Source: an uncultured cyanobacterium (GTDB lineage Bacteria; Cyanobacteriota; Cyanobacteriia; Cyanobacteriales; CAWCAG01). From it: a stretch of DNA of 64,000 bases. The notes below the pieces were generated by a model, which searched no databases, was not told where the DNA came from, and saw only the letters and a program-made list of their open reading frames with translations. Shown here piece after piece: positions 56,516 to 61,859 of the stretch. The stretch lies in assembly GCA_963803805.1 (NCBI GenBank), contig CAWDOD010000003.1:288001-352000 (forward strand), written 5' to 3'. The position numbers and the translations under genes are program-made. How positions within the stretch are numbered: position 1 is the first letter of the stretch; every line of letters starts with the position of its first letter.

Positions 56516-58357
56516 CTACTCCTCTTCCAATTCTGGCTTAGGTTTCTTCTCCAAGGGTAGTTCTTCAGGAACTTTAGGTTCTTTAGGTTCTTTAGGTTCT
56601 TGATTTTTCGCTTCTTCTTCTTCTTGGGCTTTACTCTGACTGGCTTTGTTCCCTAAATTTTCAAATTTTCTACGCCAATAGGGATTATTTGGGGGGCTAT
56701 TTGTAGCTGAAATCGCCTCATCCCAATCTCCCCGATTAAAAGCAGCTTCAGCTTGTTCAAATTGCGCTTCTGCGGCTGCCCAGTCGTTACTCCAAGTTTC
56801 AATAGTTCTTTGGGCTTCTCGATAGGCAGAACTATTGGCAGGTATGGAACTTAATTCCCTAATTGCCCCTGGTAAATCTCCTTGCTGATACTTTTCCCTC
56901 GCAGCCGCAACTATGGCATTGCCATTATCAACAGGTTGTGGTTTGGGTTTTGGTGTAGGAGATGGAGATGAAGATGGTTTTGGTGTAGGAGTTGGGGCAG
57001 CTACTGGTTCTACATCTACTTCACAATTAAGATAGTCACTATATACCCAACCACGGGGCTTGTTGATTTCTACCCATTTCCCTTCATTTTTACCAGAAAG
57101 AGAAACCTTAGTGCCATTTTTCACTTCTCCCACCTGTTCTCCATTAACATTAGGATTATCACGAACGTTCAAAGCTGGTTGGGCGTTTACTGTACACTTT
57201 TCGGTAGCATTGCCAATCAAGCTACCATCTTCTGGGAATAAGGAAACTATTTGTTCCCTGGCTGCAAAAGCAATACCAACCCCTGCCGCCACTAAGATAG
57301 CTAATAAGCTTCCTAAAAGTAGGGGGGCGCTATCGGGGCGGTTAGGGCCAATAGATGAAGGTATAGACGTTTGGGGAGAAGTTGGTTGTCTTGGTGGTGT
57401 AACTGCTACGGTTTGCTTTTGGGATAAGGGGTTTTGGGTGGAAGGTTTGTAGTGAGGAAGCTTGGGGAGAGAGTTATCTGAAACTTCTGGCTGATAAACA
57501 CGGGGAGAAGTTGGAGAAGTGGCAGGGGCTATTCCCGAATTAAGCTGTTCAAGTCTTTGCAATACTTCCGAGGCTGATTGATAGCGATCGCGGAAATGGT
57601 ACATAACCATACCATTTAAAATTGCTGCTAGTCCGGGGCTAACTTGGGCCCTTTGTTGCCAGAGAATTTCTCCTGTGTGGGGGTCATATTGAAATGCCAT
57701 CGGTTGAATTCCGGTGAGGGCTTGGATAGCAATCACCCCCAAGGCATAAATATCACTATTGGGACGAGGTTGTCCCCTAGCTTGTTCGCTAGGCATATAA
57801 CCAGGAGTTCCTACAGCAACGGTTTTAGTTACAGATTTGTCGATGAGTAAGGTTTGATTGCTGAGTTGCTTAACCGCCCCAAAATCCACTAAAACTATAT
57901 GGTTATCTGCTTTTCTTCGTAGTAGGTTATCTGGTTTAACGTCTCGGTGAATGACTCCTTGTTTATGGACAAAATCTAAGATAGGCAAAACATCTTGGAG
58001 GAGTGCTTTAACTTTTGTTTCGGTCCAAGGTTTACCGGGGATTAATTCATCAGAGAGATTATGACCATCAATAAAATCTTGGACTAAATAAAATTCTTGA
58101 TTTTCTTCAAAATAAGCTAATAATCTGGGAATTTGGGGATGATTGCCCACTTTTTCTAGACTTTCAGCTTCGGTATTAAATAAACGCCTCGCTGCGAGTA
58201 AAAAGTTAGCATCTCTAGTAGCGGGTTCGAGTTGTTTCACTACACAAACAGGATTGCCTGGCCGCCTCGTGTCTTGGGCCACATAGGTTTTACCAAAACC
58301 ACCTGCACCTAATACCTTAACAACTTGATATCGCCCGTCGAGTAACTTACCTATCAT
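56516..58357 (-). CDS. Ser/Thr protein kinase with TM and SH3b domain
   Basis: LGAGGFG, HRDVKPDN, DFG, GTPGY; TM; LNVR..PN....G.W.EI..P.GWV...YL. Confidence 0.93.
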   Translation of the reverse strand: MIGKLLDGRYQVVKVLGAGGFGKTYVAQDTRRPGNPVCVVKQLEPATRDANFLLAARRLFNTEAESLEKVGNHPQIPRLLAYFEENQEFYLVQDFIDGHNLSDELIPGKPWTETKVKALLQDVLPILDFVHKQGVIHRDVKPDNLLRRKADNHIVLVDFGAVKQLSNQTLLIDKSVTKTVAVGTPGYMPSEQARGQPRPNSDIYALGVIAIQALTGIQPMAFQYDPHTGEILWQQRAQVSPGLAAILNGMVMYHFRDRYQSASEVLQRLEQLNSGIAPATSPTSPRVYQPEVSDNSLPKLPHYKPSTQNPLSQKQTVAVTPPRQPTSPQTSIPSSIGPNRPDSAPLLLGSLLAILVAAGVGIAFAAREQIVSLFPEDGSLIGNATEKCTVNAQPALNVRDNPNVNGEQVGEVKNGTKVSLSGKNEGKWVEINKPRGWVYSDYLNCEVDVEPVAAPTPTPKPSSSPSPTPKPKPQPVDNGNAIVAAAREKYQQGDLPGAIRELSSIPANSSAYREAQRTIETWSNDWAAAEAQFEQAEAAFNRGDWDEAISATNSPPNNPYWRRKFENLGNKASQSKAQEEEEAKNQEPKEPKEPKVPEELPLEKKPKPELEEE

Positions 58358-58416
58358 TTCGAGGATTTGCTTAAGAGGTTAAAATTACATACTGACATAT
58401 CTAGCTAAGGTCAGGT

Positions 58417-59181
58417 TTATTTTTTTTCTTTAAAAGGGCTTTCTGCTTCGAGTTGTTTGATCTGTTTTTGTAGGGCAGTTAATTTTAAGCGTAGTTGAGA
58501 ATCTTCCTGGATATCAAGAAGGCGACAGAGGCGATCGCGCATTTTTTGGTGATGTCTTAAGGTTGTGTCCCAATCTCCTTGTAAACCGTAGCTACGACTA
58601 TTGATTTGTTCTTCTGGCAAGCAGAAAAATACGCCACCATCAGTACGTTGAATACTTCCTTCCCAAAGGTCAAAAACCCTAGCATTGCCTGTAATAGGGC
58701 TATTGCTATTTTGACTGCCATAGATATGAAGACTTAAAAATTCTGATTGTCCTGAGTTACCCATTTGGTGAATAAGTTCGCCATCAACTAATTTTACTTC
58801 TTGGGGTGCAAAGTCTATTCTTTTGGTGGTTCGCAGTATGCCATGTCTAAATTTATAAACGTAATGTTCTGCTATACCAAAACATTGTACTGCACCCCAT
58901 TGAGTGCAACCGTGATCATGAATGGCACTATAATCCCCTGGACTCCAGGACATGACCATGACTTCAAAATGACCTCCATCGTAGACTAGCTGGCGACCAT
59001 AGCTATCAGGAAGGGGATGATTAAAGTTTGCCCAAGGCATTAATTCTTGCGGTGCAATGTTGGCTTTTAAGATGCAGTTACGAACCCCTTCCGGAGTTAA
59101 AATCGAATGTTTTTTCAAACTATTAATTAGCGATTGCAAACTCTTGGGTAGCAATGGAGTTGCATTAGTAGCTTGAATCAT
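58417..59181 (-). CDS. Cysteine/thiol dioxygenase family cupin
   Basis: YGR, W.PG..SAIHDHG, IHQMGN, SLHIYG. Confidence 0.85.
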   Translation of the reverse strand: MIQATNATPLLPKSLQSLINSLKKHSILTPEGVRNCILKANIAPQELMPWANFNHPLPDSYGRQLVYDGGHFEVMVMSWSPGDYSAIHDHGCTQWGAVQCFGIAEHYVYKFRHGILRTTKRIDFAPQEVKLVDGELIHQMGNSGQSEFLSLHIYGSQNSNSPITGNARVFDLWEGSIQRTDGGVFFCLPEEQINSRSYGLQGDWDTTLRHHQKMRDRLCRLLDIQEDSQLRLKLTALQKQIKQLEAESPFKEKK

Positions 59182-59506
59182 TTTTCTAATCCTTTAACTA
59201 ATTTATTTCTAAGGTAGAAACTAATACTTAAAGAAATCTGATAAATGTTCATTTTAGCCTTAGAATAGTTTGAGCAAATTCTTAGGTAATCCTCATCTAA
59301 AGTATAAATAGTGAACCTATGCTAACTATGATAATTTTAGTAATTTACATATGATATAGATGTAAAACGACATAGATATGAAGGCTTAGAGGCCAGTGCT
59401 TATGAAAGCTGGACTAATTTAGTCAGCGCTGGGGGAAATATGCTTCAGAAGTTGGAGAGAAACATAAAATTAATTTTGCTTAAGTACTTACCTATGGTTA
59501 TCTTGC

Positions 59507-59535
59507 TTGACGAAAAGAAGACCTTTTGTTAAAGT
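59507..59535 (+). promoter_or_regulatory. Sigma70-type promoter of the DAHP synthase leader
   Basis: TTGACG (59507-12), 17-bp spacer, TAAAGT (59530-35), extended -10 TG. Confidence 0.75.
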
Positions 59536-59562
59536 AAGCAAAGCTATTAGATATCGTCAATA

Positions 59563-59619
59563 ATGTTCTCCAGTTTCCAGGATTTTTACTTTTGGTTTAA
59601 ATCGGTTCGCCGCGAGTGA
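59563..59619 (+). CDS. Aromatic-rich leader peptide 1 (MFSSFQDFYFWFKSVRRE)
   Basis: 18 codons with 5 Phe, 1 Tyr, 1 Trp; its 3' end can pair with the 5' arm of terminator 1. Confidence 0.8.
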   Translation: MFSSFQDFYFWFKSVRRE

Positions 59620-59647
59620 ATCTAGCTTTGTCTGGAATCTCCCGGTG

Positions 59648-59677
59648 GACCGCAGAATTAAAACTGCGGTCTTTTTT
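59648..59677 (+). terminator. Intrinsic terminator 1 (attenuator)
   Basis: GACCGCAG-8 nt-CTGCGGTC-T6. Confidence 0.88.
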
Positions 59678-59713
59678 ATTGCTCGAATTTTCCCAACTCC
59701 GTTCCAAAACACC

Positions 59714-59770
59714 ATGAGTTTCTACTTTTATTACTTTCACTTTTTTTGGCCTAGACAAAGTTCCGGGTAG
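59714..59770 (+). CDS. Aromatic-rich leader peptide 2 (MSFYFYYFHFFWPRQSSG)
   Basis: 18 codons; 9 of 10 consecutive residues are Phe/Tyr/Trp; its 3' end can pair with the 5' arm of terminator 2. Confidence 0.85.
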   Translation: MSFYFYYFHFFWPRQSSG

Positions 59771-59794
59771 ATAGCCTCATGCCGTTGTTTTATC

Positions 59795-59828
59795 AAGCCT
59801 GGAACTGAATCAAGTTCCGGGCTTTTTT
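59795..59828 (+). terminator. Intrinsic terminator 2 (attenuator)
   Basis: AAGCCTGGAACT-6 nt-AGTTCCGGGCTT, running into a T6 tract 38 bp before the ATG. Confidence 0.88.
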
Positions 59829-59866
59829 ATTGTCCTACTACTATAAATTAAAGGAATCATTGCTTC

Positions 59867-60724
59867 ATGTTAGGTGCTAAACTCGCCCTCAAATCTCTAT
59901 CTCAACCCACAAGTCTGATCAACATATCCGATCAAGTTACCATCGGTGGTTCAGAAATTGTTATTATTGGTGGCCCCTGTGCGGTAGAAAATTTAGAGCA
60001 AATGGAAACTGTTGCAGAAAAACTTGCAGCAACTTCAGTACAAGCTTTGCGGGGTGGAGTCTATAAACCTCGCACCTCTCCCTACTCTTTTCAAGGATTA
60101 GGTAAAGAAGGATTAGATATTTTTACTACTATTAAGAATCGTTGGCATATACCTGTTGTTTCAGAAGTTATGGCTATTAGTCAAATTGAAGAGATGACTG
60201 CTTGTATCGATATGTTCCAAGTTGGTAGTCGTAATATGCAAAACTTTGATTTGTTGAAAGCTTTAGGACAAGCAGGGAAGCCAGTATTACTTAAACGAGG
60301 TTTGGCTGCAACCCTAGAAGAATTTATTTTCGCCGCAGAATATATTTTAAGTCACGGTAACTCCCAAGTTGTTTTTTGCGAAAGGGGTATCCGTAGCTTT
60401 GATAATTACACTCGTAATGTTTTAGATTTGGGTACGGTAGCAGCTTTAAAACAGTTAACTCACTTACCTGTAATTGTTGATCCTTCCCACGCCGCCGGGA
60501 GAAGAGAGTTAATTGCGCCTTTGGCTAAAGCGGCGATCGCCTGTGGTGCTGATGGTTTGATTATCGAATGTCACCCCACCCCCAAAGAGTCTATTTCTGA
60601 TGCTAGTCAAGCTCTTTCTTTAGAAGAAATGGTAAGTTTAGTTGCTGATCTCAAACCTATTGCTAAAGCAGTAGAACGCAATATAGCAACTTCATCACCT
60701 AGTCGTGAACTTTCTTTAGTTTAG
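59867..60724 (+). CDS. aroF: DAHP synthase, type I-beta, short form
   Basis: GPCAVE, GGVYKPRTSPYSFQG, GSRNMQN, LKRG, CERGI, DPSH, IECH. Confidence 0.93.
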   Translation: MLGAKLALKSLSQPTSLINISDQVTIGGSEIVIIGGPCAVENLEQMETVAEKLAATSVQALRGGVYKPRTSPYSFQGLGKEGLDIFTTIKNRWHIPVVSEVMAISQIEEMTACIDMFQVGSRNMQNFDLLKALGQAGKPVLLKRGLAATLEEFIFAAEYILSHGNSQVVFCERGIRSFDNYTRNVLDLGTVAALKQLTHLPVIVDPSHAAGRRELIAPLAKAAIACGADGLIIECHPTPKESISDASQALSLEEMVSLVADLKPIAKAVERNIATSSPSRELSLV

Positions 60725-60730
60725 CTTTCC

Positions 60731-60772
60731 GGTTGGCAGTTTCCTGGATTCAACATTCAGCCTCTGCCAACC
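60731..60772. terminator. Hairpin after aroF
   Basis: GGTTGGCAG/CTGCCAACC stem between convergent genes. Confidence 0.5.
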
Positions 60773-60835
60773 TTCTACAACGATAATCTAAATTCATATC
60801 CTAAATTAAGCAATGCCAAAAAAGCTTTGCAGTAT

Positions 60836-61267
60836 CTAATCCAAATAAGCAAAAAAGCCTTCAGGAACAAGTCGCAATTCCCTACAACTAAACTTATTTA
60901 TATCTACCCAAAGAGCCTTTTTCTTTTTCTTCCCTTCCTGAAAAATCATTTCTGTTAACTCATAGAACTTATTATCTTTAAAATCGCACTGATAAAGTTG
61001 AATGATTTCATGACCAGTCTCTCCATCGCAAGTAAAAATATTTTCCAAACAACTAAGATATTTAATATTTGTTAATTCTGCTTGTATTTCTTCTTGAAAC
61101 TCTCTTTGTAAAGCTTCTAAACTAGTTTCACCAAAATCTACGCCACCTCCCAAAGCACGGTAAAACATATCTTTTTTAAAAGAGTCATGTCCCTCAGAAA
61201 CAAAGATGCGATCGCCCTCACGAATCAAACCCAAAGCAATAACCCGTATTTTCTTTTTCTTGGTCAT
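60836..61267 (-). CDS. NUDIX hydrolase
   Basis: GGGVDFGETSLEALQREFQEE Nudix box; start at MTKKKK. Confidence 0.9.
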   Translation of the reverse strand: MTKKKKIRVIALGLIREGDRIFVSEGHDSFKKDMFYRALGGGVDFGETSLEALQREFQEEIQAELTNIKYLSCLENIFTCDGETGHEIIQLYQCDFKDNKFYELTEMIFQEGKKKKKALWVDINKFSCRELRLVPEGFFAYLD

Positions 61268-61300
61268 CTCCAAATATCCATAACAAAGTAGATACAACTT

Positions 61301-61386
61301 TATAGCAATTCTCGTGCTTGTTAGGTACAAAAAACCTCGGTTTGGGGAACACAGAAATGTACCTCATGAATCTGAGAAACGCTATA
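61301..61386. repeat. Small MITE-like palindrome (TATAGC...AGGTACA / TGTACCT...GCTATA)
   Basis: Imperfect ~29-bp terminal inverted repeats with TATA ends. Confidence 0.7.
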
Positions 61387-61415
61387 TTACTTCTATTGAC
61401 TATTGAAAGGCAGTA

Positions 61416-61859
61416 TCATTCATAAAATAAAGATTCACTCTTTGCATCAACAGGCCAATCTTCATTTTCTCCCCCTATAATAACTCTGCTAATCTGCACA
61501 TATTCTTTATTAAATTGCCTCAAAGCGTTGAGCAAAATATCCAAACTAATTAAATCACTGGTTCCCAAATCAAACCAACAACGACCCCATAATCCCAAAT
61601 AATCAAACTCTCCCATATTGTGCATAGGAGACATAAGACTATTTTCTGCTGCCTCGTTGTCATATTCCAAGTAACTTAGATCAATGCCAGTATCTTGTAC
61701 CTGCAAACTTTCAGCATTGAATCCTCCTAACTTACCAAGGAAAAACCAAGAGTTAAAAACTTCTTCAACAAACTGTTTTTCTCTCTGGGCAGGAACAGTC
61801 TCAAACTCTAGCCAAATCCACAGATCAAAAGGGTTAAATTCACGAAATTGTACTTCCAT
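61416..61859 (-). CDS. DUF3531 family protein
   Basis: FREFNPF..WIWLEF, SWF.LGKLGGFN, W.RCWFDLGTSD. Confidence 0.8.
   Translation of the reverse strand: MEVQFREFNPFDLWIWLEFETVPAQREKQFVEEVFNSWFFLGKLGGFNAESLQVQDTGIDLSYLEYDNEAAENSLMSPMHNMGEFDYLGLWGRCWFDLGTSDLISLDILLNALRQFNKEYVQISRVIIGGENEDWPVDAKSESLFYE

Follow-up and report, generated by a model that had tools for sequence, protein, structure and literature searches.

What does the short segment at positions 59714–59828 do, lying as it does immediately 5′ of a gene for a DAHP synthase and carrying a tiny ORF with a run of almost exclusively aromatic codons, an ORF that ends in the same bases as the 3′ arm of a transcription terminator? We suggest that it is very probably the second of two tandem ribosome-mediated (that is, leader-peptide) transcription attenuators, which would read the charging of Phe-, Tyr- and Trp-tRNA in two stages. 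The putative target is most likely the transcription of a gene whose enzyme catalyses the first step of aromatic amino acid synthesis in this cyanobacterium. Positions refer to the whole stretch of DNA analysed, 64 kb long (hereafter, the window), and the features discussed are collected in Table 1.

Table 1. Features of the tandem leader region and of the gene that follows it
Feature	Coordinates	Strand	Basis
Promoter-like site, TTGACG-17 nt-TAAAGT, with TG before the -10 hexamer	59507..59535	+	Consensus match, 9/12
Leader ORF 1, MFSSFQDFYFWFKSVRRE, then stop	59563..59619	+	Translation
Module 1 antiterminator, GGUUCGCCG (59604-12, last leader codons) with CGGUGGACC (59643-51)	59604..59651	+	Fold
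Terminator 1, 9-bp stem GGACCGCAG/CUGCGGUCU and T-run	59647..59677	+	Terminator scan
Leader ORF 2, MSFYFYYFHFFWPRQSSG, then stop	59714..59770	+	Translation; 18 codons from ATG 59714, TAG stop at 59768-70
Regulatory codon run FYFYYFHFFW, proposed ribosome stall sites	59720..59749	+	9/10 aromatic
Weak 1:2 hairpin, GCCU.G (Trp-Pro-Arg codons) with C.GGGU of region 2	59749..59768	+	RNAalifold consensus
Region 2, first AAGTTCCGGG copy, last leader-2 sense codons Q-S-S-G	59758..59767	+	Sequence
Antiterminator hairpin (region 2 with region 3), AGUUCCGGGU/GCCUGGAACU and inner helix	59759..59806	+	Fold, -18.4 kcal/mol
Terminator 2, 12-bp stem 59795-806/59813-824, 6-nt loop, T-run 59823-28	59795..59828	+	-20.3 kcal/mol
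Region 4 core, second AAGTTCCGGG copy, terminator 3′ arm	59812..59821	+	Sequence
Putatively regulated gene, 285-aa type I-beta DAHP synthase (3-deoxy-7-phosphoheptulonate synthase), catalytic barrel only	59867..60724	+	Profile and structure matches

A leader that shares its end with a terminator

Leader 2 is exceptional within its own genome. A scan of the whole 5.3-Mb genome for small ORFs rich in aromatic residues (ATG start, 8–35 codons and at least six aromatic residues in ten) returned 123 candidates, among which leader 2 alone reaches nine of ten and no other exceeds eight of ten. Its frame is open further 5′, back to a GTG inside terminator 1 (window 59645–59770; MDRRIKTAVFF...MSFYF...), and similar open extensions (MNRR..SAVF..) occur in loci L005, L023, L035, L039 and L047 and are absent from most relatives; these extensions are probably incidental.

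A sequence-only reading of the segment had proposed that the end of this leader is duplicated in the terminator, and that both copies compete for one partner. The duplication of AGTTCCGGG lies exactly where it was placed, at the leader end (59759–67) and in the terminator 3′ arm (59813–21), and belongs to an exact 10-nt repeat (AAGTTCCGGG, 59758–67 and 59812–21). In the 64-kb window AGTTCCGGG occurs twice, against a chance expectation of 0.28, and 2 of 100 shuffles reach two copies. The proposed partner GCCTGGAACT (59797–806) is indeed complementary to both repeat copies, and segment 2 overlaps the stop and the last four sense codons of leader 2. The terminator scan found a 12-bp stem at 59795–59824 followed by TTTTTT, one of two such sites in the region where 0.3 are expected, and the fold of the 141-nt region has a z-score of -3.78, with none of 200 shuffles folding equally well. 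One detail fared less well: the GATA (59770–73)/TATC (59791–94) pairing put forward as an extension of the antiterminator is present and could form, but it is neither the minimum-energy choice nor conserved. The minimum-energy antiterminator lengthens its 10-bp helix by AGAUAGC/GUUGUUU rather than by GAUA/UAUC (both pairings being possible), and the extension in relatives is mostly GCGU/ACGC, with 79% of cells paired.

A first module, 150 nt 5′ of the second, has a leader, antiterminator and terminator of its own. The 5′ arm of terminator 1 and the module 1 antiterminator overlap by 5 nt (GGACC), and the antiterminator consensus over 78 sequences (RNAalifold) is GGUUCACCGGG/CCCGGUGAACC. Judged from its bases, the promoter-like site at 59507–59535 is the putative start of the leader transcript; three promoter-like sites lie in the region against 2.2 expected, so this is weak evidence for the site. 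We considered the terminators as a property of the upstream gene and rejected this, because the ORF at 58417–59181 is divergent and on the opposite strand. A Ser/Thr protein kinase of 613 aa is encoded at 56516–58357 of the window (reverse strand) and matches PASTA-kinase and MADS6 defence-kinase models below their cut-offs; it seems to have no connection with the attenuator.

The DAHP synthase gene and its paralogue

DAHP synthase is the first enzyme of the shikimate pathway. The 285-aa product encoded 3′ of terminator 2 matches NF006421 (E 8e-116; 386.9 bits against a cut-off of 335; profile positions 70–337 of 338) and TIGR01361 (348.7 bits against a cut-off of 267.75). Its best match among solved structures is the 276-aa chain 1vs1 (1e-81), and residue 13 of the query is aligned to residue 78 of the 338-aa chain 1rzm. 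Given the partial profile coverage and the structure alignments, the enzyme is the catalytic barrel without the N-terminal domain (about 77 residues) of longer relatives.

The same genome encodes a second, full-length type I-beta DAHP synthase of 352 aa (G000 contig C2:854597–855328, reverse strand; locus L111, 1450–2508), which has an N-terminal extension of about 80 residues and a core 47% identical to the window enzyme. No aromatic leader was found upstream of this paralogue, which suggests two DAHP synthase isozymes under different kinds of control. No type II DAHP synthase was found in the window’s genome. By comparison with Thermotoga, the N-terminal domain of the full-length enzyme is probably allosteric, and related core-only DAHP synthases are not known to be feedback-inhibited. 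The arrangement suggests that control of entry into the shikimate pathway is split, in that the full-length enzyme keeps its N-terminal domain and the core-only enzyme is controlled through RNA by the three end products. If the core-only enzyme of the window is likewise free of feedback inhibition, it would be of interest for the production of aromatic compounds in cyanobacteria.

Conservation and distribution of the tandem

A search with the DAHP synthase gave 80 cyanobacterial loci among the matches listed (70–76% identity; Nostoc, Calothrix, Fischerella, Microcoleus, Floridaenema, Argonema, Spirulina and others), with about 370 further loci outside the comparison. Three of the 80 have less than 110 nt of upstream DNA and were left out, leaving 77 assessable. 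The sequence-only reading had made its case depend on conservation in relatives, and the tandem layout (that is, both leaders and both terminators in the same order) is kept in 77 of these 77 listed loci; its core claim, a mutually exclusive switch, is thus supported by comparison. All 77 have a leader 1 of consensus ..SYFYFWFRVVHRE followed by a stop and a leader 2 of consensus MTYFSSWFYGFYFWPRxSSG followed by a stop, and the median spacings are 146 nt from stop 1 to stop 2 and 110 nt from stop 2 to the gene start.

The codons of the run are conserved in a particular manner. Within the core codons (that is, the ten codons ending with the last aromatic codon, in 78 sequences), Phe, Tyr or Trp is encoded by 549 of 780 (70%) in leader 2 and by 468 of 780 in leader 1, and in 66 of the 78 leader-2 sequences exactly six sense codons lie between the last aromatic codon and the stop. 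Both Tyr codons are in use in leader 2 (TAT 88, TAC 75; 78 sequences). In the run’s TTT, TAT/TAC and TGG codons the first base hardly varies, and the second may be T, A or G, as selection for ‘any aromatic codon’ predicts.

A genome of the same genus (G001), 84% identical over the aligned region, leaves regions 2, 3 and 4 of module 2 unchanged. Its leader 2 differs by three residues (Y7H, P13T and Q15E), and its terminator 1 stem carries two compensatory CG-to-UA changes; one pair of the 1:2 hairpin is broken. In this leader (MSFYFYHFHFFWTRESSG, locus L082), two His codons fall within the aromatic run, and TAC-to-CAC changes seem to be tolerated in this genus only. One further locus, L043 (JBLNEP010000075.1), comes from a MAG labelled Actinomycetota and has a complete tandem leader of cyanobacterial type with a DAHP synthase of 71% identity; the contig may in fact be cyanobacterial and mis-binned.

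The element is also tied to one gene family. R1, a covariance model built on module 2, matched 20 of 151 cyanobacterial genomes sampled evenly, once each, and all 20 matches adjoin this DAHP synthase. An ortholog of the window enzyme (E <= 1e-100) is present in 21 of the 151, namely the 20 with an R1 match and G062, and none of the 130 genomes without the enzyme has an R1 match. The 21 enzyme-bearing genomes comprise 19 with the tandem and two with a single module, G062 and G023, such that each module is found as a sole attenuator. At L113 (G062:C1:1511900-1513700, reverse strand) there is a module-1-type attenuator only (MFSNKFYFFWFMEVHLE, then stop), with a compensatory change in the antiterminator (GGUUCACCUGGAG with CUCCAGGUGAACC). 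At L105 (G023:C34, reverse strand) there is a module-2-type attenuator only (MAIATQTFFYGFYFWHGNSSG, then stop), about 300–140 nt 5′ of the gene, and nhmmer detected no module 1 in the 800 nt upstream. In G083 (G083:C1:3292646-3293473, reverse strand; L095) the orthologous DAHP synthase has one in-frame TGA, which could mean a broken gene or an assembly error, and the attenuator is intact. Profiles of both modules (nhmmer) found one copy of each in the window’s genome and no further copies or regulon, the next match (E = 0.018; contig C2 near 1330522–1330587) having no terminator or leader features.

From the sequences, the tandem may have arisen by duplication of one ancestral attenuator. At E up to 1, a profile of module 1 gives weak colinear matches to 15 of the 78 module-2 sequences (best E = 2.9e-5 in an 11-kb database) and none to shuffled copies. 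The matches bring together the aromatic runs, the GUUC(AC)CGGG of the leader end and the CGCCCGG of region 3. Given that shared composition (UUUUAYUUUUGG) could contribute, this kinship is suggestive only.

RNA structure and covariation

Comparative covariation, which had been named as a check on module 2, was assessed in an alignment of 78 module-2 sequences (A1); it supported the terminator and gave no signal above controls for the antiterminator. Across these sequences, 87.3% of the cells of terminator 2 are paired, compared with 19–63% in slid controls. Four of its pairs show compensatory change (1 of 500 shuffles is as high) and 19 cells show a double change (0 of 500 shuffles reach 19), although such shuffle controls overstate significance because related sequences are not independent. 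For the antiterminator, 93.1% of 698 cells are paired, compared with 14–58% when the partner is slid by 1–3 columns; its covariation score is 0.038 against 0.040 in shuffles, 461 of 500 shuffles being as high, and the extended antiterminator likewise has no covariation above shuffles. Its support therefore rests on conservation, which could be explained in part by coding and terminator constraints on the shared bases. In 77 of the 78 sequences each of the two folds reaches -10 kcal/mol or below.

Concerted changes in three segments support the antiterminator. In the Spirulina locus L028, UCCGAG stands at the leader end and in the terminator arm alike, with CUCGG between them; in the Calothrix loci L039, L052 and L054, CUCCGG stands at both places, with CCGGAG between. 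An exact repeat of at least 6 nt between the leader end and the terminator arm occurs in only 40 of the 78 sequences, and in the others the changes in region 4 still pair through G-U.

The 1:2 hairpin has a consensus (RNAalifold) that pairs columns 57–62 with 71–76, each pair being held in 70–73 of 78 sequences. The whole fold from the leader to region 2 has -7.0 kcal/mol in the window and a mean of -10.5 kcal/mol across relatives. With a hairpin this weak, an untranslated leader may default to read-through, unlike that of E. coli trp.

Proposed mechanism

The reading frames with their codon bias, the alternative pairings, which are conserved, the spacing and the exclusive link to one gene are observations; from them we infer ribosome stalling, a folding order, a response to the supply of amino acids and a reason for having two modules. 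A polymerase starting near 59540 would have to pass both terminator 1 (59647–77) and terminator 2 (59795–828). While the aromatic tRNAs are well charged, the ribosome on leader 2 would reach the UAG (59768–70) and cover region 2 (59758–73), such that region 3 (59795–806) would be left to pair with region 4 (59813–24), a near-copy of region 2, and transcription would stop at the T-run. If any one aromatic aminoacyl-tRNA became scarce, the ribosome would instead stall within FYFYYFHFFW (59720–49) and leave region 2 exposed. Region 2 could then capture region 3 before region 4 had been made, in which case no terminator would form and the polymerase would read through into the gene. Module 1 would work in the same way with its own sequences.

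The distances allow for this: segment 2 would be masked by a ribosome that has come to the stop codon, and left free by one stalled at the regulatory codons. With a ribosome reach of about 12 nt past the stop codon, as given in PMC4833913, the masked stretch would extend to about 59782, such that region 2 would be wholly masked and region 3 left for region 4. Since a polymerase has to get past each terminator in turn, the effects of the two stages would multiply, which may give less leakage and a sharper response. Codons for Phe, Tyr and Trp stand in each of the leaders, so a shortage of any one of these charged tRNAs should open both gates. The second stage would presumably also cut the leak from an untranslated leader.

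Alternative explanations

Chance as the origin of the element was rejected on the conservation data. An RNA switch set by a protein or small ligand on the leader RNA (TRAP-like or riboswitch-like), with the ORF incidental, would suit regions that are highly conserved in sequence and an antiterminator that covaries little, and leader 2 in the window has no evident Shine-Dalgarno sequence 5′ of its ATG (59714). We nevertheless consider such a switch very improbable: AAGGAG stands about 10 nt 5′ of the leader-2 ATG in Nostoc-type relatives (consensus sequences), the start, open frame and stop keep a fixed distance in 77 of the 77 assessable loci among those listed, and substitutions in the run are synonymous or exchange one aromatic residue for another. 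Moreover, an Rfam cmscan of 58000–61500 at E up to 10 returned seven weak matches, all to unrelated families, and no leader family (Phe_leader, Trp_leader and the like), T-box or riboswitch. Just as improbable, in our judgement, is arrest by the nascent peptide in response to a free aromatic amino acid rather than to tRNA charging, for which TnaC is the comparison drawn. The tail W-P-R-x-S-S-G-stop is conserved as a peptide, as arrest of this kind would have it, but the bases of the tail double as region 2 and as part of the 1:2 hairpin, so its conservation is already explained; the same-genus genome has P-to-T and Q-to-E changes in the tail; and a ribosome arrested at the stop codon would hide region 2 and so promote termination, just as normal translation would. 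We give least credence to the view that the leaders are aromatic-rich peptides with a function of their own and the hairpins the ordinary terminators of two tiny genes. Peptide conservation across orders would fit this view, yet the leader end overlaps the segment that competes with the terminator, the elements always lie directly 5′, and in the same orientation, of one gene whose end products match the codons, and each element is single-copy per genome.

A different question is whether the two modules give the amino acids different weights, as the sequence-only reading inferred, and together form a logic gate rather than two equivalent stages that multiply. Leader 2 was said to be richer in Tyr and to include one His, which holds for the window (three Tyr and one His, against one Tyr in leader 1) and for this genus, but not across the 78 sequences: median counts are three Phe, two Tyr and one Trp in leader 1 and three Phe, two Tyr and two Trp in leader 2, and His accounts for 3 of 780 leader-2 core codons. 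Should the weighting differ at all, what recurs is therefore the extra Trp codon of leader 2, and not Tyr or His. As all three aromatic residues are found in both leaders of nearly all lineages, we regard a logic gate as somewhat unlikely; it would in any case refine, and not replace, the explanation by tandem leader-peptide attenuators.

Significance and comparison with known systems

A passage of a 2016 paper (PMC4833913) remarks that there were no reliable data on attenuation in cyanobacteria. In the openly accessible article texts covered by our search on the topic and on the peptide motifs, there was no report of the tandem element in cyanobacteria. A conserved, gene-specific family of this kind would fill that gap and argue for working transcription–translation coupling in the phylum, and the leader would be a compact candidate sensor of aromatic amino acid supply. 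It is possible, rather than probable, that this is the first documented family of classical leader-peptide attenuators in cyanobacteria, with two stages that each read three aminoacyl-tRNA pools, termination that is multiplied (that is, ultrasensitive and low in leakage) and a stage 2 tuned to Trp in most lineages. If so, cyanobacterial transcription and translation would be coupled closely enough for the ribosome to steer RNA folding, and a single DAHP synthase without an allosteric domain would answer starvation for any one aromatic amino acid.

In the trpL, pheL and pheM leaders of E. coli, segment 2 is masked once the ribosome stands at the stop codon, and the antiterminator (2:3) excludes the terminator (3:4). 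The module described here shares this four-segment logic and the placement of regulatory codons in a short ORF, and differs from those leaders in mixing three amino acids, in having a segment 4 that is a near-copy of segment 2, in its weak 1:2 hairpin, in its tandem modules and in having a DAHP synthase as its target. In E. coli, DAHP synthase is controlled by repressors and through three isozymes. A pair of leader ORFs is known from Salmonella mgtCBR, in which the two read different signals and are unrelated to each other; both leaders here, by contrast, would respond to the same three amino acids, and one may be a duplicate of the other. The likeness, as far as the account in PMC3641672 goes, is that each of the two mgtCBR ORFs is thought to govern stem-loops and transcription into the coding region.

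There are precedents outside the cyanobacteria for the control of DAHP synthase by leader peptides. The uORFC-13-1 motif of Acholeplasma aroF, as described by Brewer et al. 2021 (PMC8632094), is a predicted case in which, as here, a predicted uORF lies beside an intrinsic terminator and exclusively 5′ of a DAHP synthase gene; it is proposed to sense the incorporation of Phe and, unlike the element described here, is a single module, which that description places in Acholeplasma and environmental sequences only. In Corynebacterium glutamicum aroR-aroF (Neshat et al. 2014, as presented in the review PMC11802643), limitation for Phe alone had an effect. Compared by description, that system differs from the present one in its phylum, in having one leader and in having no Trp codon reported in the review’s account; it resembles ours in that a leader whose codons mix Phe and Tyr (Phe-Tyr-Phe) precedes a DAHP synthase operon and, as we propose for the cyanobacterial tandem, in that ribosome stalling raises read-through (PMC11802643).
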